A DNA stretch of 64,000 nt from Yuukianura sp. NJ FZ-2021 (taxonomy: Eukaryota). The DNA lies in the NCBI GenBank assembly GCA_046563655.1, contig CM102285.1:10044001-10108000 (forward strand). Reading direction: 5' to 3'. Positions 38,601-59,512 of the stretch are shown here, in pieces. The notes under the pieces are model-generated. The model was not told where the DNA came from. It did not search any database and saw nothing but the letters and a program-made list of their open reading frames with translations. The translations under genes and the position numbers were made by a program. How positions within the stretch are numbered: position 1 is the stretch's first letter; each line of letters starts with the position of its first letter.

Positions 38601-41600
38601 CTCCTTACGACAAAGTGAAGTATCCCTTGCACCTTCATCACTCCCATCAGCACAGTGTTTCACACCGTCACACAATTTACTGATTCCAACGCAAACTTTG
38701 TTGTTATCACACAGTCTTGACGGAAATTCACAACGAGGCGTTTTCGCCGGGCATCTCAGCTCATCACTCCCTAATTTTAAACAAAAATTAATAATTTCCG
38801 TCACAAAATAACACTATTGGACTGATAATTGTTGATTGATGATTGATTATGTACCGTCAATGCAATCAGGAGAATTGTCTAACAGAATCAAATCGAAATT
38901 AATTATCTTTTACTTTTCAAGAATGAAATTGAAATTGTATTTGCCGTTTTTAGCTGAAAGGTTAGGCTGGTTAAAAAGCACAAAAGTCTAAATTTCGAAG
39001 CGCCGACCCTCTCAAAAACTTATTTTTTCTATAAGAAAAATTTCAAAAAAAAAAAATTCCCAATTTTCCAACGTTAAAGGGTCGCTCAGATCACTTAAAT
39101 AAGCTTACATTTAAATTTTTCAATCAGCTGCAGATGTGATCAAAGTTTCATTAATTAGTGTCAATCATAATTCAAATTAGTAATTGGTAAGTGCAAATAC
39201 CAAATTTACTTTTGCTGTGTCTAAAATTTCGAATTTGACATATTGGGAATTCCGGTGTTTTGAACACTTTTTCTAATTGCAGTTAGGTTTAACGGTTGTC
39301 ATTGTACCCGTTGTTGTCCCAACTCGGTAGAGAGTTATTTTGTGTAACAAAAATGGGATAATTAATTATTTAAGTTAATTATGAAATAATTAAACACAGA
39401 ATTTGTCACATGGTGCAACCATCCAACGGAAGATGAAAAGTTGCCACACCATGTGGGTACAATGAGGATTTAAGCCTTACTGTAGACTTCGGACACGTTG
39501 AGCGACCCTTCATCGTTAAAAAATTGAACTTTTTTTTTCACCAAAATTTTTCTTTCGCAAAAAATTTTCATTTGAAAGGGTCGGCCAAAAAATTTAATTA
39601 GCATTGTTCTTCCCATTTGCTTTTTAACCACCCTACTGAAAGGTCTTACCGCAGCGGAAATAATGCGGAATACATTCACCGGAGGTGATACACCGCCAGC
39701 TATTCGGTGTGCAGGTGATGTTTGCTGCAAAGACAAAGGGAATACATTTCAGCTCATCTTGTATCGAAAAAACGTTAAAGTAAAAGCAACTCACTGCATT
39801 CTTCGTTTGAAACGTATAGGTCAAAATATGATGCCAACTGGCAGTTATCCGTGGGAACATTGTTCAAATTGTAAGCACATGGCGGAATTTGCCCACCACA
39901 GTTATACTCATCGGAAGCGTCTAAATAAAAAATTTAATATGAAACCATTATCTAAAGAGGGATTAGCTCTACGGTTACTCACCAGAACAGTGGCATATTT
40001 GATCGCAAATCTGTGATTGTTCCAAGCATTTTGAATCAGCTGCACAATAATACTTATTTGTCAGGTTGCAATGAGTTTCGCAATCTCGTTCATCAGTCAT
40101 GTCTGTCCCAGGACAATCCTGAACACCGTTACAGACGTTTTCCAGAGGGATGCAAAATTTTGTGTCACACTCAAACTGCAACGGAGTACATTCCGGATGA
40201 CCTATATAGATTTTTAAAAAACAATTTGCACCATAAAGTGAATGCCTCCGATTAAAAATTAACTTACTGCAACTCTCGTGTTCGTCGCTTTTGTCATCTC
40301 TCCCGTTCGCTGAACAATCCACAACTCCATCTATAATAAAAGATACACAGAATGGAGTGTTTAAATATTAATAAATCGTTAGTTGAAACAATTAATACAC
40401 ACCACAAACCCAAGATGAAGGGATACATCGCTTGCTAACTTCACACTGAAATTCCGATTCATGACAAGTGATGGTGGAATTACTGCAGTACTTATGTTGC
40501 TCTATCAGTCAAAACAAAAAATCAACACCTCGCTTATTCTGTAAAACTTAGTACCGGAATCAAAAACCACTTACCGTCACTGGAATCCCCGCAGTCATCA
40601 GCACCATTGCACAACAATGCTTTGGGTATACATTTCCCTTCTCCACAATGAAAGTAATTTAGTCCGCATAAACCCGGTTCATACGCTGCAAAACGACCCA
40701 ACCAAATAAAACCCACGTGAAAAACGTTTACCAATGCTGATATTCGAATCCCAGAATTTAGCAAAACTTACAGCATGGTCCATCTTCAGAGCTTTCCTCT
40801 AAATGGCAAAACATAGTTCTTCACATTTAAATAACTTTGAAAAGGTAGTAATTATGGAAAAGCGCAAAACGCTTACCATCACTGGAATCTCCACAGTCGT
40901 CTATGGAATTGCAAACCAAGCTAAAACAAAAGGAGAGATCAGTCACTAACTAAAATAAATTGAGTAAGGTCAATGTTCAATTAACTAAAAGTACCTGAAT
41001 GGGATGCATTTTGGAAAATTGGTACACTGAAATTCTGAGGCATTACATGCGAGAGGATGTCTGTAGTTGTTGATCTTTTCACATACTTTCGCGTCTGCAG
41101 AAATCTTATAGCCATCTCGACACTCACAGGCTGAAAACGGCGCTTCTGGAATACCAAAACACAGTTCCGGACATCCATTGTTTCCAGTGCAGCGATTCCC
41201 CTCTGCGAATAAAAAATTAATTATTACGTTGTTTTTTGTTTTTACATTACTTTTATATGAATATTACATTACAAGGATCTGAATTTTCCGAAAACAAATT
41301 TTGTACAAAAAAAGCGTGAGGAAATGGCTTAAAAAGTACTAGGAAGGAAAAAAATCGGCAAAAAAGGTTGTTGCTTTTTTCCTTACCTCTTTGAAGACTA
41401 ATGTCGTACACCTTAATTTGTGCAGCAGCATCAATAGTGGCCACGGTTTGTGTTGTAGATACGTTCCCAAAATCCACTCGAAGAATTGTCCCAGTTGGGC
41501 TACTCGCATAGTGGGTATCTCGAAAAATGTTGCTGCTCATACTAACGTAGAGAGCATTTTTGAAGAATGTCATTCCGACCGGGACGTGGCTCTCTTTGTC

Positions 41601-44600
41601 TGAGAACTGATGAATTAACTAGAAAGTAAAATAGAAATCAGCACTTTGATCTCGCTGAGAAAATAAATTCTACTCACTTCAGTCCGACCAGTTTTGATGT
41701 AGAGGCGTTCGATCTTGAGTGTAGCGAGGTCAACCCAGTACAAGAAGTTGTTCTCATGGTCTAGGGTCAAACCAAGCGGCCAAATAAGGTCAATCACTGC
41801 TCTCGACCTTCTCTCGCCGTTCATCCACGCTTTTCCAATCCAACCCGCCTTGTCTACCACCGTCGTTGACCAGCAAGACCAAAATATTAAACTGCAAAAG
41901 ATATTGTTAATAGTGGTAAACGAGAAACATTTCGAAAACATATTCTCGGAAAAACCATACCCGGCTTTCGGAAATACGACGATAGACTTCACATTTTCCA
42001 AATCAGTGTTAACAAGAAGCTTCCGATACTCAGGATGATCCAAATGTGCTACGTAAATGACCTTCAGATTCTCGTCCGTCCAATACAAGTTCCTTCCAGC
42101 CCAATCCACTGCAATTCCTTCAGAGTGTGAAACTCCACCGTCCAGAAATACTTCGCTTGTTGTGTTATATAGGCCCTTGGATTTGATTCTGAATCTTTTG
42201 GAGTCCGTGTAGTAGATCTTGGAGGTTGTAGAATCGTAATCAATTGCAGAATTCACAACAGTATCAATAATGGGAATTGTTGCATCCGAAGTATTTGTCA
42301 GAAGAGAAAAAGTTCGAACTCCACCGGGTCGAGATTTTGAGTACAAAATGAACTGCTGTGCAACTTTCTCTAAAAGTTTCAACGAAAACGTACACATTAG
42401 AACTGAAATCGCTAAAATAACGACTATATGAAAACAAAAATATGAAACTGAGAACCGATGCCACCTTTCAATGAAATTCAAAGATTCATTCTTACGTTTG
42501 CATGACCTCTGGTTGCTTTCCAGTACAAATCCTTCACGGCACAGACATTTCCCATCGGGTTCTTCACTTGATGTCACAAAAAAGTCCGTGCATCCTTTGG
42601 AAGTGGACAGCAACGCTAAAGACAACAAAACATTCAACGCAATTTCGCACTACTTTCACTATACAAAAAAAACTTACACGTTGGCTGGATTTGTCTATGG
42701 TAAACTTGGATTCCCAGAGGGCTGGTCAAGTTCCTCATAAGCGTTGTATGATTCTTCCCACTGGGATTGAATTTGTGGAAAGTTAGGAGTTCCTTCGAAG
42801 TGAGGACGTACAGCCAATTTTCAAAGACGCTGATTTGTCTCAAGTGCTGAATCTGTGAAACACAAATACAAAATTTTAACGGCGATGCCGTTACTAAGTA
42901 CAACAATTTAGCTTTTAGCATCACTTGCACCATACCCCTCTGTACATTGTCCTCCTATTTCCACCATTGTAATTGATTCGCTCAACAGCATCAAGGAAAC
43001 GGTCCACCCAAAATATCTCCGACCTTGGTAGGTCAAGAGTAACCCCCTCTGGGTAAACGATTTTGGAAAACACCAAATTCCGACGATTAGTACCGTCTGC
43101 ATTTGCCCTCTCCAGTTTCGCCCCGCTTCTTCCCCACACCGTGAAGAACATTAATCTGTTGAAAACAAAGCCAAGTTCATAACAATTACATAGGCATTTC
43201 AGATTTCAGAATAAGTTATTCTGGCGTACCCCCTATTGCTGTCCATTGCAATCGACCTAGGTTTGGACACATCAGAATCTACCACTGTTTTACAAAGTTC
43301 AAGCCCATTGGTACACATGTAAATGATTTCCAGTCCACTGTCCATGAAGTAGTAGTTGAAGGTCACCCAATCGTACACGACTTCATATACATCTAAAAAA
43401 TGAAACATTCATAAAAGAACTGACATTTTCATGAGAATTTCGATTTGAGCTAACCCTGGAGGGAGTACAAATATGGCTGCCTGTTATCCCAGTAATTTTG
43501 CAAGTTGTTTGCCAGCGCGCATCGAAACGTTGAGCTGCCTCCACCCTTTTGACTGTGATTTATCCAACAAACTGTTCTGTTGAAATGGTCAAAGGTGACG
43601 CCGGGAATAACAGTAGCGGAATCTGCTGTGTACGGAGCGTTACGCGAATAGACGGATCCATTTTGATATAACCAAGATATTCCACGCAAATCGTGATACA
43701 AAAGCAGGGGAATTGACCCTCGTGGAACTAAAAATAAAAACAGTCAGTTTTAACTATTCCTAAATTCTCTTCTTTTGATCAAAAGTGAATTTACGTCTGG
43801 CTTACCATCGAGAGCTTTGCATTCCCGTCCATCCACCAAATCGTAGCCTTTGGCGCATTCACAAGATGGAGGACCATTAACATTTGCGTGACAAATGTGA
43901 TCACAAGTATCATCAAACAAGCATTTGTTCGTAGCTGTCGAAATAAGTCAATTACATATTTATAAGGAGATTGTTCAGATAAACGCCAATTTCAAAATGA
44001 TGTTTGCAGTCTTACCTACGCAATCACTTCCGTTGTATTCCTTCCCTAGAAGAAAAATTGTATGCTTGAATCATGAATCAGATCTTATAGTGGTTGCAAA
44101 ATATTCTGCTAACCTGCTGCGCAGTAGCAGATAGGTCCCTTCTCCGATGGTTTGCATCCATATTTGCAATGAAGCGCGTCCAAGCAAATTGTTGTGTTTC
44201 TGCAAAATTGGTCTGTTTCATCCGAGCCATCCGGACAATCGGAAATCTGGTCACATAGACTCGAAATTGGGATGCAAGTGAAGCCATCTTTACATTTGAT
44301 CCAATTCTTCGCACATGGATTTGCGGTCGTGCCTGAAATATAAACAGACAGTTTTATTTATTTGTCTTTGCCAATGTGTTACTGCTCACAATTCGCACAA
44401 GTTTTATGCTTACATTCTTCGTCTTCCTCGTCGGATAAATCTAGCAAGAACCCTGCCTGGAAACCACAGTCCGGTGTAGAATCGCATTTGAATCCAGCTA
44501 CAAGGAAGAAACAAGAAATGAAACCAGAAGATGTTAAAGTTGCTAACTGTATTTTTGAAAGTTGTGGCGAACCTGGAATGCATTTTTTCGATTGTTTACA

Positions 44601-45504
44601 CTGAAATAGTCCGGGACGGCAAGAGACGTTAGCTGGAATACACAATAATCAGTTAGTATTTGGCTTGAGGAAGGGATTTGAAAATAACAAACTGAAACAG
44701 GTCAAGGGTCAAAGAACAAAACTTTTGACTTTTACCGCAATTGTCTTCATCGCTGCCATCTATACACTCTTCTACTCCGTTACAAATTTGATCCTTAGAT
44801 ATACATTCCAGTTTATCTTTGCACAAATATTCATCGAGTCCGCAAAAAATACCTCCTGCAAAATAAAATTATAAACATTGTAAATAGGAATTACTAGCCT
44901 GAAACCCGTGATGCTAACGCATCACGAAATTCACTTGAAGCACTAGGTCATACTCGGGTCAAACGAAAAAGCTAGTGGATTTTTGACATGAAGGAAGGAT
45001 GATTTGAAACATTTTGTCAAAAATCCGCTAGCTTTTTCGTTTGACCCGAGTATGACCTAGTGCTTCAAGTGGGTTTCTGGCTAGTTGAATAGAAAATGTA
45101 TTGTAAAGGCGGGGGGGCAAGCCCCCCGGACCCCCCCCCCTGCTTTTGAGTTGAGATGGAATTTGTGGAAGTCTGTGCTTGGAGGAGTAATGTAAAAGGG
45201 ACACACCAGGATCGTTCCACTCTTCCAAGCAGAGCGTTTTTTCTACATACAGTTTGCTTTGGCATGGGTTTTCCCATTGTGACGGAGGGACACTCGTCAA
45301 TTAGAGTATGATGAGTTCGGTTACTTATGCTTTGTTACGCTAAAACTTTTACAGACGTATAATTTCCATACCCCGAACAACGCCATCGTCCTCTCGTAAA
45401 GTTTGAATGAGATCATTTCCGAAAACGCTGACGAAAATCTTCAATAAAGTAAGTAAAACTCCTAAATACTGTACAGGAGGTAGCTTCAATTGTCGCTGAG
45501 CCAT
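23624..45504 (-). CDS. LRP1: Low-density lipoprotein receptor-related protein 1 (giant LDLR-family endocytic receptor), ~80 exons
   Basis: First coding exon 45504-45372 ([29 protein letters not shown], signal-peptide-like). Four LDLa clusters (3, 8, 9 and 11 units by my count) are separated by EGF and YWTD beta-propeller modules. Furin-type RRRR site at 27527-27538 in the last propeller; ~10 C-terminal EGF repeats; TM helix ([28 protein letters not shown], ~24490-24573). The cytoplasmic tail with [11 protein letters not shown] and DEKKGLL...DHPLA matches LRP1 rather than megalin. Stop TAA at 23626-23624. Confidence 0.93.
38963..39635. mobile_element. 673-bp MITE with TAGG...CCTA termini and 9-bp TSD (Mutator-like TSD length)
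   Basis: Left end TAGGCTGGTTAAAAAGCA and right end TGCTTTTTAACCACCCTA (17/18 inverted match). CTGAAAGGT directly flanks both sides (38954-38962, 39636-39644). Subterminal inverted blocks ccgaccct/agggtcgg and gggtcgctca/tgagcgaccc. Confidence 0.85.
44894..45311 (-). mobile_element. 418-bp non-autonomous Helitron in the first coding intron of LRP1
   Basis: Minus strand reads host A | TCATACTCTAAT... and ends with hairpin CGTGATGC-gtta-GCATCACG, 9 nt, CTAG | host T. There is no TSD. Removing it leaves a 98-bp intron, typical for this gene. Confidence 0.8.
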
Positions 45505-48651: not shown

Positions 48652-50446
48652 ATGGCTTCGGGGAGTACTTTACAGGTTAGTCTTGACTCCGTTTCTGTTG
48701 CTTACTGTAAAAGTAGATACGCTTTACAAATTTTTGTATACTATTTTTTTAGAAAGCCATTGACTTAGTCACGAAAGCGACTGAAGAGGATAGAAACAGG
48801 AATTACGATGAAGCCCTTCGTCTTTACGAACATTCAGTGGAATACTTTCTGCATGCCATAAAGTGTGAGTTTCATTTTGCTCGTTTGATCTAAAACTTTT
48901 GGAAATAAGGTTTTTCAAATGTATTTCGACGTGTCATTTCAGATGAGGCGCAGAATGACAAAGCAAAGGAAACTATTCGACAAAAATGTTTGCAGTATTT
49001 GGAACGAGCTGAGAAAATTAAGGAGTACATTCGGGAATCGTCTAATAAAAAGAAGCCAATGAAGGCCGGAGAATCTAGCAAGTAAGTACAGCCTGGAACC
49101 CTGCAGAACCGCACTGCATATTCTTTTGTTATTAGGATTACTTTAGTTGCTACGTTTTGTTTTAACCCAGGAAAAACGGTGGCAAGGACGATAGTGACAG
49201 CGATGAAGATCCGGAGGCAAAGAAGTTGCAAGCCAAGCTCGAAGGAGCAATTGTAATTGAGAAGCCCAATGTCAAATGGTCAGACGTTGTCGGTTTAGAA
49301 GGTGCGAAAGAAGCCCTAAAGGAGGCTGTCATTTTGCCTATTAAGTTTCCACATCTTTTCACTGGAAAACGCACTCCTTGGCGTGGAATTCTTCTGTTTG
49401 GCGTAAGTTTGTTTGTCTCATCTCGTCAGTAATAAGTAGAAAATGATTTCATGATCTGTCAATAGCCACCGGGAACTGGAAAATCCTACTTAGCCAAAGC
49501 TGTTGCGACAGAAGCGAACAATTCAACATTCTTTTCCGTATCGTCATCTGACTTGGTCTCTAAATGGCTGGGAGAGTCTGAAAAGCTTGTCCGGAATTTG
49601 TTTGATCTGGCCCGAAGTCACAAGCCATCCATTATATTTATTGATGAAGTGGACTCTCTCTGCTCGTCTCGATCTGATAATGAATCCGAGAGTGCTCGTC
49701 GCATCAAGACTGAGTTCCTGGTACAGATGCAAGGAGTTGGAAATGACACTGAAGGAATCCTTGTCCTTGGGGCTACGAATATACCATGGGTCCTTGATTC
49801 TGCTATTCGTCGTCGATTTGAGAAACGAATTTACATCCCACTTCCAGAAGAGCATGCTCGAACAGGAATGTTTAGAAACAATTTAGGAAGTACACCGAAT
49901 ACTCTTACTGAGGAGGACTTCAAAACACTAGGAAGGAAGACAGAAGGGTAATGACAACACATACTTATGTTCACGCGGTCTCCCAGTGCTGTAATTCGTG
50001 TTAAACTTTGCAGTTACTCTGGAGCTGATATAAGCATTGTCGTCCGAGATGCCCTCATGCAACCGGTGAGGAAGGTACAAACGGCGACTCATTTTCGAAA
50101 AGTCAGTGGTCCTTCAAGGACAGATCCAAATGTCATTGTGGACGACTATTTGACTCCATGCTCCGCGGGTGTACCCGGTGCTATTGAAATGACATGGGCC
50201 GATGTGGCAGATGGGGACAAGTTACTAGAACCGCCAGTTACAATGGTGAGTCTTATAAAAAATACACTGATTCACAAGAGTACTTAACGCGAACGCGATT
50301 CATGAATCTACCCCAATGCATTGCTTACTCTTGTTATATTTTAGAGTGACATGCTAAAGTCCCTTGAGACTTCAAAACCCACTGTGAATGAGGAAGATTT
50401 GAAGAAGCTGACCAAATTCACAGCCGATTTCGGACAAGAAGGATAA
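48652..50446 (+). CDS. VPS4: Vacuolar protein sorting-associated protein 4 (MIT domain plus AAA+ ATPase), 440 aa
   Basis: Exons 48652-48675, 48753-48864, 48943-49081, 49171-49402, 49466-49947, 50014-50245, 50345-50446. MIT helix [13 protein letters not shown], Walker A GPPGTGKS, Walker [28 protein letters not shown]-terminal FTADFGQEG*. Confidence 0.97.
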
Positions 50447-52232: not shown

Positions 52233-55200
52233 ATGGCTTCAATGGCGAAGCAAACGACAAAGAGCTATCATTACTCGAGCTCTGGTGGTGGACGCGGAGA
52301 CGCCAACGTTACGATCGAGTACTCCGCCGATCTCTCAAGCCTCCACCGTCTCGAAGTAAGTTTGGATTCAATTTTTTTAAAATATATTTTCCAAAAATCG
52401 AACCGAAGAATTTGGATTCCTAGCCTAGTCCTTCAAATCATCAAAATCGAAATTTCTCAGCGAAATTTTGAACGCATAAAACAGTGCCAAAATATGCAAT
52501 CGGATGTAAACGCAGAAAGTTGCCGGGTCTTTATACATTCCACTTTCGGTTTTTAGAAATGGAGCATCCGAAATACATGCGTTGAAGAAAAAAAAGTTTC
52601 AAATTTTTTTTTAGAAATTCAAAAAATTAAAATTTTTGTTGCTAAGCAACCCAAGTCATCTTCAGCCTACACCTGTCTTTCATCTTGCTTCCCATCTCTC
52701 AATCCTCCGTTTTTCTCTCCTTCCTCTGTATCTTTCCTCTGGAAAATTTTGAGAAGATGCCAAAAACCAAAATCTATTTAAAATCCTAATCTCACCTAGC
52801 GTCCCCCGGATTAGGTCCCAAACTTGTTCCTGTTTTAGATTTTTAAAATTGCCATGCTCAAATAACGGAAACCCTATGTTTAAAAAAACTACAACACCCG
52901 TGAGTTAAGAAACCTGGAGATTAAGATGACTGAAATCAATTTATTATTTTAGGACAAAATCCGACTTTTGCAAGATGATTTGGAATCGGAACGTGAAATT
53001 CGTCAAAGAGTAAGTAAAATTTCTCTTATGGCTTTTTTCTAGAAAGGAATTTGATATTTTAGTTTGTTAAGATATCGTCCATTACGCCTCAAAACTTTCA
53101 CTTTTGAATGAAGCGTGACTTGACGCTTGACGGAAAAATGAAGGAAGTAGAACTGTGTGCTGTCAATGTCATGTTTGCACTTCCCAAGCGCATGACGCAT
53201 GTCTGTCATTTTTAGTTTCGAACTTGCATTTCCCAATCTAATTTTATTTTTAAACACTGAAATTCAATTCCTATGATTAAGTGGATGTTGTCAATCTCAG
53301 GGCTCACTTTCGGAAGAAAAAGAATTATGGAGTATTGCCAAAAACTTTTTTTTCACACTTTAAAGTTTTGGAATAAATTCGGATTGATTTGGAATGATAT
53401 CATCGTAGGCGTGAGTCAGTAGACAAAATAAAGTTCTACTTTTACGATTTAGTGAGCAAAGCATTCGAATGTATCCAGCATAACCATAAAGTATACTACA
53501 CAAGTATATATATTTGCATTCGTTTTTGTTTCAAGATAACGTATAGTTTATATTTAAAAATAAATTCGGGAAGAGATTTTTTTCGGCTCGACAGCTACTA
53601 AAACCAAGCCTAAGAAACGAAAACGAGCCTTTGCGTTTGTGGGCGAAAGCGCATCGTGCCAGTTTTATTTTTTATTTGCCGTAAAATCAAAGCGAACCGA
53701 GATTTATCGAGGCGACGCCCCTATTGGATTAGATTTGGAAAGTAAAAATGTTGGACTGTAGAAATATCTTAGACATGTCAACCTACGCATGGCTTTAAGA
53801 GTCAACGAACTTTATGATTCTATGATATCTCTAAGCTAGTTTTTTAAACAAGTTTGTTTTAATATAAAAATTAATATTTTAAATATTTGCATTGTCAGAT
53901 TGAACGAGAGAAGGCTGATCTGAGCGTCCAGGTTATCCAGTTGCAGGAGCGACTGGAGGAGGCTGAATGTGGTGTTGAGGGACAAGTAAGTTTGAAATCT
54001 AAGATTTTCTTTTAAATATTACAAAAGTTGAATTATCTGAAATAATTTTACATTTTATTGTTTTAGTTTGTTATTAACAAAAAGCGAGATGAGGAACTGG
54101 CCAAACTCCGACGACTTCTGGAGGATGTCCATCTTGAATCAGAAGAAACCGCGACAATTCTTAGGAAGAAGCACCAGGAAGCTATTGCTGACTACCAAGA
54201 TCAACTGGATCAAGTTGCCAAATCAAAAGGAAGGTAACCATCACCTTCATGTTTTACTTTACTTCCAGTTTTTATAAACTCTGCTTAAGGAAATGTTAGT
54301 TTTGAAACCATAATACCAAGTTTTGTCACACCAATTACTAGCGTAGTGAAAGTGAGTTATGGCTCTTCTCCATTGGTGAATCTCTTCCAACTGATAGAAG
54401 TGAATCGAATCTTTCAAAGGGAAATCTAATTTTAGACTTTTGAATCTCTCAACGCCAAGAGTTTAGTTTACTTTTCTGCTTAAAGGGTGGTAACAGTTAC
54501 GCTACTTTTCCTTTTAGAGATCTCCGATTCTGCTACATAACTATTATTTAGTCTGTCACTATTTCCTTCGACAGCCGCATTTTCCTTAAAATGACTTCCC
54601 ACTTTCTTAGAAACTGTTTTAAAAACGACTTTGGAATTTCAGCGAAGCCTGAAAAAAATGTTGTTGATGAATTTTCATGCAGAACATTCTATTTTTGCAG
54701 AGCTGAAAAAGAAAAGCAGAAGTTGCAGCAAGAAGTTTTTGAACTGATGTCCCAAGTTGAGTCAGTCAACAAGGAAAAGGTGAAAATGAAGATCCAAATT
54801 CTTAACTGAAATTTGAAAATTATGAGTTATGATTAATTTTACACCAAAACTGATTTTTATGAATTCGGATCAAACCTATGATTTCCACTTTACAGCTTAT
54901 TAGCGATTCGATTTTGCAAACTATAGCGGGATTTTGACTAAAATTTTAATACTTTTTCAAAATATAGTTGATCAGCATCAAACAAGTCGAGAAGTTGGAA
55001 ATCGTTGTGCATGAGCTGAACATTAAGATTGAAGAATTGCACCGAACTGTCTCCGATGTCCAAAGTTCCAAACAACGCATCTCTACAGTACTCTTTTATA
55101 AAATGTTAAAACAAAATATCGAAATTGGAGAGTAAAAGTTATTGACCTTTGACCTGTTCTTAGGAAAACATCCAATTGACCAAGGAGGTTCAAGAACTCA

Positions 55201-58200
55201 AAGTATCCATTGAGAACGTAACTTACTTGCGAACGCAAGCCTTGACGCAACTGGATGACGCTCGCCGACGCCTTGAAGATGAAGATCGACGACGAGCTAC
55301 GTTGGAAAGCAATTTACATTCAGTCGAAATGGAATTGGAATCTTGCCGAGTCCAACTCGAGGAAGAGTCCGAAGCTCGCTTGGACCTTGAGAGACAACTT
55401 CAGAAGTCAAATGCTGACGCTCAACTGTTCAAATCTAAATACGAAACTGAAGTTCATGCTCGAGCTGAGGAAATTGAAGAAATTCGGTAAATTGATGCAA
55501 CCATCGACGTTTTTGGTTTCCCCAAAATTTATTTTCTCAATTTTTAACTTTTTCTTATTCATTCCAGACGCAAGTTCCACATTCGAATTTCCGAACAAGA
55601 AGAGCAGATTGAGTCGCTTATGGCCAAATGTGTTGCACTTGAGAAGCAAAAGTCTCGTCTCCAGAGTGAAGTCGAAGTGCTCATCATTGATTTGGAGAAG
55701 GCCAATGGAACGGCTCGCGAGCTTCAAAAACGTGTTGAGCAACTCGAACGCATCAATGCTGACCTGAAGGCCAAATTAGACGAATTGGCTGCTCTATACG
55801 AAGCTTCTCAACGCGACAACCGAGCCAAGCAGCAACAAATTCAACAATTGACGCACGAATTGGACAAAACTCGTGAAGCTCGAGACTTCTTGGCCCGTGA
55901 GAACAAGAAAATCAGCGATGAGCTCCACGATACCAAAACTTCTCTCAGCGAAATCAATCGTCGCTATCACGAACTCGAACTGGAGTGTCGCAGACTCGAA
56001 AATGAGCGTGAAGAACTCACTGCTGCTTACCGTGAGGCCGAAGCGGTACGAACGTCTTCATCTTTTTTTTTTTAAATTTTGCAATCTTTTTGGAATTGAA
56101 GCATTTTCAACTCAAAATTTTTGACATTTTGTGTTTTCAACTTAACAGGGCAGAAAAGCTGAAGAGCAACGCGCACAACGTTTGGCTGCTGATTTGGCTC
56201 AATATCGTCATGAGATGGAACGCCGTCTCCAAGAAAAGGAAGAAGAAATTGAGGCTATTCGGTAATTTGCCATTTTTTTCAGTTTTTCCTATTTTGCTCG
56301 GATAATTTAGATACAATGCCTTTAGCAGACGCCTAGAATTCAAGTGCTAACGCTTTTAAACACTTCAGAAAAAGCTTGGCCTCAATTTCCTACCCCAAGG
56401 CCACTACCGCACTTGACCCGACCTTAATTTTGAACACATATGGTTTTTTAAAGCGCTGTCGATACGTTCTGGTTCACAAAGTCCAAAAATCCTAAAATTC
56501 AAAGATAGCACGCACAATCTGCATTTGGCACCAGCTAAAAGCTGAGATCTCTGCGCCAAACAGTTTCATTCCTCGTGCAGTTCATTATTTTGCTAAGATG
56601 GCGGCGGCAAAAGCGCGAAAGGTCATGGGGTTCATCCTGAAAAAAATTGATTCCTATGTAGCTCGTGCCTTAAACGGTTGATCCTGCCGTTCCTTGCCGT
56701 AGAAATGCGACATGCTAAAATTACATCAGGAAGGAGACACACGTTTTGTTCATCTAGAGAGATACTCAAGAATTTGGCACACAGATCTGCAACAAACTCC
56801 GATTTCGCAAAGCGTTTCAGATGCTTCTTGTTTTCCATTTCAATTCAGCAGGCATCTGGTTTCTATTTTATCTCGTCGTTTGAGCGTGCAGACCACAATT
56901 TCCTAGACACGCTTTACGATGGTCTACAGTTGTCTAATTCCTGTGGTAGATGAAGTATCTTTTTCAGTTGTTGTGTGTAGTTCAGTGAAAGCGAAGCATG
57001 AACAGCAGTAAACTGTAGGACAACTTAGGGCCTTAAGGCCGCATCTTCAACATGGCTGGCACTTCAGCGATGGCTCTCATCGCTGCGTCCTGTTGGGAAT
57101 CGCAGCAACAAAAAGAGACTCAGCCCCAGCGAGCGCAGCGTCGTCATGTTAGATCGGCCTCTTCAATGTACGAAGACAACTTCCGATATGGGTTCAACGT
57201 CTACCAGCCAATGATCGACTACTTGGACAAGAAACTAAGCGGCTTGTCAACATCGGCTGACCAAAAGCCGCATCTACCTTACTCTGACGAAATGGCTCTC
57301 ACTAGTAGTCACAGTCCGCGAAGAGTCAATTCATACACGAAATCACAAATACAACAAGTGGTAGACAAAGCTGCTGAACGTGGGCGAAGTCAGCTTAAAG
57401 TTAGCCAAAGTCTATCATCGAGAATTCCAATTGAGGTCAAAGGGCATTCTAGCCTCGAGCGAGCCAAAGCTTCTGCCTTTAGTTCTTCCTTGAGCCAGCA
57501 GTATTCCTTAGGAAAGGGGTCACTGCTCAGGGAGGTCATGTCTAGTTCTTTGGTTTTAGACGCAGGGAGGTCACGCAGCAGGGTTCACTTTGAAGATGCT
57601 GGGTCACAATCACAACAAATCGGGTCATATGTATCAGGCATGCACATTTCATCGACTGTGCCCCATAGACGGACGCGGTCATTTGGAGGGTTTCCACGTC
57701 TAAAGGAAGCGGAGACTCCAAGTACTTCGAATGTCGCTGACTTTTCAAGCAGTACAATTGACAGGCACAAAAAGTATAAGTTGCTGCCTTTTAAAACGTT
57801 TGAGCCATCAGGTCAAACCGCAGCAGGGTCAACTGCAGTAGCGCTAGCGTCAACTAAAACGGCTCCAAATGAGGAATTGTTGTTTTTCCAGGGTCAATGG
57901 TAAACATTCAATGGTTGAATTTCAAAAATCTAAGTTTAGGTTTAAATTTTCGAAATTTCGAAAATTTTAACCCAAAGTAACTAAAAGTGTTCAGTGATGA
58001 GATTTGTATCATAACCTAGAAATCGAAATAGTTAACTAAATTTGTTTCTATTTTTTCAGTAAACAAATGGCTATTGAAATTGAGCAACTGAACTCTCGTC
58101 TCGTCGAAGCTGAAACACGATTGAAGACGGAAGTCCAGCGAATCAAGAAGAAGTTCCAGATTCAAATTACAGAAATGGAAATGTCGTTGGATGTCGCCAA

Positions 58201-59512
58201 CAAAACGAACATCAGCCTTCAGCAAACGATCAAGAAACAATCAATCCAAATTAACGTAACGTTCAGAATTTTTAGAAGTGAAAACATGAGATTTTAAAAA
58301 TTAATTTTTTAAATTGATTTGATTTCAGGAACTCCAAGTCCACTACGAAGAAACTCAGCGTCAACTTCAAATTGCTTTGGATCAATATGGTGCCGCTCAG
58401 CGCAGAGCCAATGCACTTCAAGCAGAACTGGAGGAAGTCCGAAGCTCACTCGAGGCTGTTCGTGATTTCATTTTTTAACTGGCTAGATTTCTGCTCTTGG
58501 GGGAAATTAGATTTGAATTTTTTGAATTTCAGGCTTTGAGGGCTCGGCGCGTGGCTGAACAACTCTGTGAAGAAGCTCAAGGACGAGTGAATGAACTGAC
58601 CACCATCAACATCAACCTTGCTTCAGCCAAGACAAAGATTGAACAAGAACTTTCAATTCTCAGCTCAGACTATGATGAAGTTTCTAAGGAATTGAAGGTA
58701 AGAATGTCACTGTGAAGCCAACCTATTTAAAAATAAACATTGAGTTATGGAGTTCCTCGATTCTGTTTTAGATGGCTGATGATCGCTTCCAAAAAGCTCA
58801 ATCCGAATTGGTCCGAACAGTTGAAATTCTTCACGAGGAGCAGGAACGCATCGTTAAAATTGAAAGTATTAAGAAGACACTGGAAATTGAAGTGAAGAAC
58901 TTGACTGTTCGATTGGAAGAGGTTGAAACGAATGCTCTTGTGGGAGGAAAGAGAATCATTTCCAAATTGGAAGCTAGAGTAAGTTAGAGTTTCGAAATCA
59001 GCATTTTCCAAAATGCTACAATTTTTTTTGAGAATTTCAGCTCCGAGATTTGGAACTTGAATTGGACGAAGAGAAGCGACGACATGCCGAAACGACCAAA
59101 ATCCTACGCAAGAAGGAACGCAGCGTCAAGGAACTCATGATGCAAGTTGAGGAAGATCAAACCAGCGTCACTCTTCTGCAGGAAGCTCTTGACAAAGTCG
59201 GACAGAAAGCCAATGCTTACAAGAGGCAGTTGCAAGAAATGGTAATCGGTTACTTCAATTTTTCAATTGATCAAATCGTATTTTGGCGCTTAAATTTTGA
59301 TTACCTCACAGGAGAGCGTCTCTGCCACCAGTGTCACCCGAGTCCGACGCTGTCAGCGTGAATTGGAAGCTGCAGAGGAGAGAGCCGAGGCTGCCGAGAG
59401 TAACTTACATCTTATCCGAGCCAAACATCGATCCTTCGTGACCTCCTCCGTCACTCCAGGTCAAACAGGTCAAATGTACGTCGTACAAGAGACGAGAACA
59501 ACCGAGTACTAA
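52233..59512 (+). CDS. Prm: Paramyosin, long form (881 aa)
   Basis: Exons 52233-52355, 52953-53009, 53899-53985, 54067-54233, 54701-54779, 54968-55087, 55164-55486, 55568-56045, 56149-56261, 58060-58255, 58329-58457, 58533-58697, 58772-58978, 59041-59241, 59312-59512 (2646 nt, in frame). Short non-helical head, then [18 protein letters not shown]...; myosin-rod-like coiled coil ending [12 protein letters not shown]; no motor domain. Confidence 0.96.
56964..56969 (+). promoter_or_regulatory. Candidate initiator (TCAGTT) of the internal miniparamyosin promoter
   Basis: Arthropod Inr consensus 88 nt upstream of caacATGg at 57052; E-boxes CAGATG (~56818), CATCTG (~56853) and CAGTTG (~56927) just upstream. 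Confidence 0.35.
57052..57899 (+). CDS. Prm: Miniparamyosin-specific alternative first coding exon (paramyosin short form, 648 aa when joined to exons 58060-59512)
   Basis: 283-codon ORF inside intron 56262-58059. Ends TG|GTAAAC in phase 2, matching the phase-2 acceptor at 58060 (T AAA CAA ATG). This is the EIEAIR|KQ junction at which the insect miniparamyosin exon joins. Confidence 0.85.

Follow-up and report, generated by a model that had tools for sequence, protein, structure and literature searches.

We analysed a stretch of 64,000 nucleotides from Yuukianura sp. NJ FZ-2021 (GenBank assembly GCA_046563655.1, contig CM102285.1, positions 10,044,001 to 10,108,000 of the forward strand), referred to as the window in the following, and describe an exon in its paramyosin gene that appears to encode the head of a miniparamyosin (mPM). 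Part of this head resembles the WYR domain of flightin, and we consider it likely that the module found in mPM heads is homologous with this domain. For the mPM-head family as a whole, homology is well supported by sequence comparisons; for the copy in the window it is supported, resting on membership in this family and on moderate direct scores. Taken together, the exon is probably the head of an mPM, in which residues ~31–83 form a divergent WYR domain of common ancestry with flightin, followed by a Ser-rich linker of ~200 residues and by the last ~370 residues of the paramyosin rod.

Flightin and mPM are both non-myosin thick-filament proteins of Pancrustacea. The WYR domain, which spans W85–R131 of flightin (PMC10573858), co-sediments with light meromyosin (PMC8301185) and lies close to Skip 3, on the inside of the annulus of myosin tails. 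It has been called exclusive to flightin and ‘without homologs’ (PMC8301149, PMC8301185), and the WYR papers limit it to flightin and to Pancrustacea. A WYR-type module in mPM bears on this view as well as on the origin of flightin, and the mPM head would add a member to a domain family that is already known. The initial annotation of the stretch took the link between mPM and WYR to be undescribed, and indeed the literature that we searched, which excluded the 2014 paper defining the domain and the supplements, contains no such statement. The abstract of that paper, by Soto-Adames et al. (2014), reportedly mentions a decapod ‘paraflightin’ and a chelicerate motif of unclear affinity. Either could overlap with the module described here; the word ‘paraflightin’ does not occur in the literature searched.

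The head exon comprises 849 nucleotides and sits within a 1.8-kb intron that separates the exons of the paramyosin rod. Its open reading frame of 283 codons starts with an ATG at 57052 and ends in the donor TG|gtaaac at 57900/57901; the acceptor ttttcag precedes position 58060, and the two sides join in frame, with Cys as the junction codon. We mapped the exons by tblastn with the paramyosin of Folsomia candida (P0110) and the ‘paramyosin, short form’ of Eupeodes corollae (P0061), and found the junction ...L|CKQM to be common to the window and P0110. Because the exon has an ATG of its own and a donor that leads in frame into the rod exons, we regard it as an mPM head: judged by position and splice phase, 57052–57900 lies within the paramyosin gene as an alternative first coding exon that joins the common C-terminal rod exons, its expression and splicing being predictions from the DNA. 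These rod exons lie at 58060–58255, ~58323–58466, ~58539–58700, ~58772–58981, ~59032–59238 and ~59300–59512, where the inner borders are approximate. The P0110 model itself (OXA62379.1, 1292 residues, named ‘Paramyosin’) runs through the mPM head exon between rod exons, and therefore merges two alternative isoforms in one model.

In this animal, the head could in principle belong to a separate nested gene, or be an unused relic, without any connection to the paramyosin rod. The junction between 57900 and 58060 is predicted from sequence alone, and many database models end with the head exon. Yet a consensus donor stands precisely at the end of the reading frame, its phase matches that of the following rod exon, and the module is clearly constrained in the alignment of window-like heads (A4, see below). 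In 11 of the 14 rows of this alignment, the head exon ends with W-stop, which in the window corresponds to the donor TG|gtaa. Moreover, database models that comprise both head and rod exist in four species. We therefore consider a nested gene or relic very improbable. The initial annotation had proposed that a WYR-like module is fused to the C-terminal rod of paramyosin, and the gene structure together with the head-plus-rod models upholds this proposal.

To place the head among known proteins, a scan of 1.84 billion representative proteins yielded 57 representatives at E ≤ 1e-3, all of them aligned to query residues ~30–120, with the nearest homologues of the head exon at E-values from 1e-39 to 1e-21. 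Those with names are ‘paramyosin, short form’ proteins of many Hymenoptera and of one syrphid fly, and the head is homologous to the heads of these annotated short forms (alignments A1 and A3). Among the named relatives, Diptera, Hymenoptera and Collembola all keep the module in their mPM heads. In P0034 and P0054, the head can be read from the sequence to run on into the paramyosin rod, and in P0061 and P0068 the head is followed by a rod that Pfam recognizes as Myosin_tail_1 (1.7e-30 and 1.1e-28). The place of the window head in the mPM-head family is unambiguous. No Pfam family matches the window head in hmmscan at E ≤ 10, and none matches eight of its relatives besides Myosin_tail_1 on the two rod-bearing full-length proteins. 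The consensus of 52 heads consists of 33 residues, five variable residues and a closing P-H-L-P-W-x-N-E-R-G-L. All named carriers of the module are hexapods or malacostracans, which fits a pancrustacean restriction; as most matches are nameless, other arthropods may be among them.

Within this family, the window falls into a subfamily of its own that includes Folsomia candida XP_035705683.1. Window-like heads carry three features that are absent from insect heads: an N-terminal SAMA[LI][IL]A (57052–57110 in the window; alignment A4), a basic RR-T/S-RSFGAF island that may be a kinase site (57670–57700) and an aromatic C-terminal end, ...YW-x-x-x-W. Hymenopteran heads (P0063–P0101), for their part, show a variant second half, PELPWSDGR-x-LWEDK. 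Many of them are annotated as separate ‘paramyosin, short form-like’ proteins of ~100–300 residues without a rod, which are probably truncated gene models.

The relationship to flightin had first been noticed from a single peptide, encoded at 57142–57291 on the forward strand and corresponding to residues 31–80 of the exon product. The quoted peptide, which ends in PHLPYSDE, agrees with the translation in all 50 residues. The Drosophila WYR sequence with which it had been compared is correct, as the 34-mer is present in the target row of 8u8h_A in the phmmer output, and the midline of this output reproduces the 13 identities of the ungapped 34-residue alignment (VR, Y, Y, N, Y, IDY, DKK, G). 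In a phmmer search of 177,635 distinct PDB sequences, flightin (8u8h_A) is the single match of the exon product at E ≤ 10, with an E-value of 0.013 and 18.7 bits. This direct match is marginal, and we turned to profiles, built from 52 full-length mPM heads (A1), 29 module-only mPM segments (A2) and 14 window-like heads (A4). Searched against the same PDB sequences, the A2 profile, which contains mPM heads only, finds two matches at E ≤ 10, and both are flightin: one at 34.1 bits and E 1.9e-7 (residues 83–146), the second chain at 23.2 bits and E 4.8e-4. Likewise, the top match of the A1 profile is flightin 8u8h_A (E 1.2e-5), with 8ew5_A at E 0.14.

A profile for the flightin side had to come from another source, as word-indexed searches of the protein collection for flightins brought back mPM heads only. 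We scanned metagenome contigs with a degenerate 27-nucleotide motif for a nine-residue core common to the two PDB flightins and obtained 36 loci, ten of them with flightin context; one of these (L012) matches both flightins of the PDB, with values of 9.4e-19 and 4.9e-18. Seven complete WYR translations from the metagenomic loci form alignment A6. In three other flightin loci (L011, L028 and L033), the open frame begins in the middle of WYR (...RKNYY); the first half is apparently encoded by a separate exon, unlike in the window, where a single exon holds the module. The common origin of mPM head and flightin WYR that the initial annotation had suggested is supported by a significant relationship at the profile level: in hhalign, A2 aligns with A6 at 96.9% (E 1.6e-10, 61 columns) and A1 with A6 at 97.1% (E 6.6e-11, 60 columns). 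In the reciprocal search, a flightin hidden Markov model (HMM) run against 120 stored proteins with Z set to 177,635 recognizes 51 of 91 heads outside the window's subfamily at E ≤ 1e-3, the best at 38.0 bits.

Could the resemblance have arisen by chance? The single-sequence match, at E 0.013, would leave room for it, but the profile matches in the PDB, the hhalign values of 96.9–97.1% and two kinds of controls contradict it, so that chance is barely credible as an explanation. Scored with the A2 profile, 400,000 random sequences of 182 residues with the motif's own composition (10% Tyr) stay at or below 18.4 bits, and not one attains 23.2; for the flightin profile, 400,000 random sequences of flightin-WYR composition give a maximum of 19.8 bits. 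The metagenomic loci allow a further comparison: with the mPM profile, the ten loci with flightin context score 22.4–51.9 bits, while 17 of the 26 other carriers of the core are reported at no more than 7.6 bits and nine fall below the reporting level. Since chance carriers of the core score far below the flightin loci, the relationship extends beyond the IDY-type core.

The alignment of mPM heads with flightin covers the entire published WYR span, with flightin residue n corresponding to residue n–53 of the window head (P0001). Several positions with a known role in flightin are kept. R87, the partner of myosin E1554 in flightin (PMC10573858), has a basic counterpart in 52 of 55 other heads and corresponds to R34 in the window; N102, which is conserved in flightin (PMC8301185), is N in 53 of the 55 and N49 in the window. 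The Tyr/IDY pattern is conserved among mPMs: the position of Y104 is Y in all 55 other heads, in 75 of 75 across all groups and in the window (Y51), and within the IDY of the 55 heads, I is found 47, D 50 and Y 51 times. The window module is itself Tyr-rich, with Y40, Y46, Y51 and Y57 next to F44 and F48, and with N49 at the N102 position. By contrast, the residues that bound the domain are lost: the W85 position, occupied by W in 58 of 82 other heads, is H32 in the window, and the R131 position, occupied by R in 67 of the 82, is M81. The set of 82 heads used for these two counts is redundant and heavy in Hymenoptera. Among 20 window-like heads, W is kept in two, both from one cluster. The window copy is thus degenerate, having lost the bounding W and R and retained the Arg equivalent to R87 and the Y/N/Y-IDY-DKK-G core.

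The WYR-family assignment holds at the profile level for mPM heads, and is borderline for the window subfamily taken alone. A number of observations weigh against the homology that we propose, most of them concerning this subfamily. Both residues that give the domain its name at its borders are gone from the window. The full-length A4 profile finds no PDB flightin at E ≤ 10, its sole match being an unrelated PARP1 fusion at 0.13, and its hhalign comparison with A6 (67.5%, E 5e-5, 54 columns) is weak alone. The flightin HMM recognizes none of the 20 window-like heads at E ≤ 1e-3 and leaves four of them unreported, and on the window head it scores 21.4 bits (E 0.0017), compared with a random maximum of 19.8. 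Furthermore, A6 holds only about four distinct sequences. Structure searches do not help either: Foldseek finds nothing in the PDB at E ≤ 0.001, and VIA-align, run over 48,161 chains, ranks flightin 8u8h_A third (Z 2.8, root-mean-square deviation 11.1 Å over 66 residues), tied with unrelated chains; with a second model, that of P0057, flightin is outside the best 50 rows. The 50-residue peptide of the window fares better against A6 (83.6%, E 8.2e-6, 35 columns), and overall we regard the direct flightin scores of the window's lineage (67.5–83.6% in hhalign, E-values of 0.0017–0.013) as moderate.

The model behind the structure searches was obtained with AlphaFold2 for residues 20–110 of the window head, from an alignment of 75 sequences, and has a mean predicted local distance difference test score (pLDDT) of 74.5. 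It predicts helices at residues 38–47, 49–62 and 97–109 in P0001 numbering, the first two being one helix interrupted at residue 48; helix 1 of flightin is kinked in its middle (PMC10573858). In the ESM Atlas, the best scores of 0.77–0.80 go to myofilin, to an unnamed arthropod cluster and, at rank 5, to flightin; they are on the level of shuffled proteins and serve as leads only. The window head has no match to the Pfam Myofilin family in hmmscan at E ≤ 10.

A more serious alternative to homology is convergence, in which mPM head and flightin would each have evolved a Tyr-rich helical peptide for docking on coiled-coil rods. The module is short (~50 residues) and biased in composition (10% Tyr in A2), the structure searches do not connect the mPM head with flightin, and the window subfamily reaches only 67.5% in hhalign, all of which such an origin could accommodate. 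It is difficult to reconcile, though, with a collinear match over 54–64 columns with at most one short gap, which includes the non-aromatic residues P, N, I-D, D-K, G, P and E-R, and with the controls, in which composition-matched random sequences stay far below the observed scores and chance carriers of the core do not exceed 7.6 bits. We thus consider convergence quite unlikely and common descent of the two modules the better explanation.

The module also occurs in a further class of proteins, of 517–613 residues (P0032, P0037, P0042, P0044, P0049, P0053 and P0106; alignment A5). Its named members are CAL4093658.1 of the krill Meganyctiphanes norvegica and XP_076068258.1 of the mantis shrimp Oratosquilla oratoria, and their products are unnamed in the databases. 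Proteins of this malacostracan class have the bounding W in nine of nine cases and a longer conserved block of ~115 residues, which extends through RTHTNWSM, and their C-terminal part differs from that of mPM; they have no paramyosin rod and no Pfam family. In hhalign, the class reaches 99.7% with mPM heads, 99.1% with the window subfamily and 88.7% with flightin WYR, and by this measure it is closer to mPM heads than to flightin. Its best match in the PDB is nevertheless flightin (1.5e-4), and the flightin HMM recognizes one of its nine members at E ≤ 1e-3.

What might a WYR-type module do on a paramyosin rod? In the mechanism that we propose, the rod part of mPM would co-assemble with paramyosin, the Ser-rich stretch would act as a flexible linker between module and rod, and the predicted kinked helix of the module would pack on myosin tails at the inner face of the myosin annulus. 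In this way, mPM would tie the paramyosin core to the myosin shell. By analogy with flightin, we lean slightly towards the view that the mPM module binds the myosin rod. The module could instead be homologous to WYR and have another function, such as binding paramyosin or a partner at the M line or at filament ends. Such a role would agree with where mPM is reported to reside, mainly at the M line (PMC2120917) and also at filament tips (PMC4929530). It would also fit the replacement of flightin D105 and D106 by Q-P in every mPM subgroup, on account of which the binding surface differs from that of flightin. Against it stands the equivalent of R87, the flightin residue that pairs with myosin E1554 (PMC10573858), which is basic in nearly all other heads and Arg in the window. 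We judge a function away from myosin tails to be rather unlikely, though the least improbable of the alternatives considered here.

If the module does bind myosin tails, a WYR-type module on a paramyosin rod would give mPM a concrete and testable job, that of a covalent tether from the paramyosin core to the annulus of myosin, and the module might account for densities that thick-filament reconstructions have left unassigned. More tentatively, and with considerable doubt, one may picture WYR as a domain of at least three architectures (flightin, the mPM head and the malacostracan protein of ~540 residues), in which flightin arose from a duplicated mPM-type head exon, or the reverse, and in which flightin and mPM compete for the myosin rod at E1554/Skip 3. 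If this were true, such competition would explain the damage to flight muscle upon mPM overexpression, and mPM would have a flightin-like role in muscles without flightin.

The features of the locus are listed in the table below. Composition suggests that the part of the head between module and donor is disordered. Upstream of the head exon, two initiator-like TCAGT words can be read at 56964–56968 and 56982–56986, and an upstream open reading frame of six codons (ATG...TAG) lies just past them at 56998–57018, in the presumed 5' leader of mPM. The MEF2-type word YTAWWWWTAR occurs 19 times in the window, where shuffled sequences lead one to expect 10 and none of 100 shuffles reaches 19; five of the matches fall within the paramyosin gene (53244–58736), and the intron that precedes the head exon has none. 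Just upstream of paramyosin, a multi-exon gene for a VPS4-like AAA-ATPase with an MIT-type N-terminus and the Walker A motif GPPGTGKS occupies 48750–50290 (+), and a large gene on the minus strand, at ~39975–44870, encodes LDL-receptor class A, EGF-like and YWTD-type repeats.

Table. Features of the paramyosin/mPM locus, in window coordinates.
Feature	Position	Strand	Basis and remarks
Exons of full-length paramyosin only	52233..56262	+	upstream of the head exon; tblastn with P0110, 66–85% identity
Putative promoter-proximal region and 5' leader	56964..57051	+	tentative, from sequence inspection
mPM-specific first coding exon (predicted)	57052..57900	+	283 codons, last codon finished by the first base of the next exon
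WYR-like module, residues 31–83, aligned to flightin W85–L133	57142..57300	+	translation, phmmer, hhalign
Predicted kinked helix, residues 38–47 and 49–62	57163..57237	+	AlphaFold2; contains the conserved Y/N/Y, IDY and DKK
Ser/Thr/Arg-rich linker of the head	57301..57900	+	alignment A4; conserved islands, e.g. RRTRSFGGF
Intron between head exon and first shared rod exon	57901..58059	+	gtaaac ... ttttcag
Six shared C-terminal paramyosin rod exons	58060..59512	+	tblastn, open reading frame list, translations; TAA stop at 59510–59512

Compared with known systems, the mPM head has two points of reference besides the malacostracan class. The first is the WYR domain of flightin (Drosophila W85–R131; 8u8h_A and 8ew5_A), with which it is collinear over the whole domain, including the aromatic ladder, N102, the motif I-D-Y-[IL]-[DN]-x-K-x-x-G and the closing P...E-R-x-L. 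The helix broken in its middle that is predicted for the mPM head may have a counterpart in the kinked helix 1 described for flightin (PMC10573858). The two differ in context and in detail: flightin is a free protein of 150–180 residues, whereas the module of mPM stands N-terminal to a paramyosin coiled coil; mPM heads have Q-P-M before IDY where flightin has D-D-V; and, unlike flightin, the window head has no Flightin_C-type tail that we could see. The second is the mPM of Drosophila (Becker et al. 1992; Maroto et al. 1995, 1996), which the gene in the window resembles in having an alternative 5' coding exon within the paramyosin gene, which presumably has a promoter of its own and is joined to the common 3' exons. 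The number of shared C-terminal residues is also similar, ~370 here by tblastn estimate and 363 in Drosophila mPM (PMC2289305). In contrast, the head is considerably longer here, with 283 residues compared to 114 in the first Drosophila isoform (PMC2289305), and unlike its Drosophila counterpart, it falls into a subfamily, Folsomia candida included, whose conserved N-terminus is of the SAMA[LI] type.

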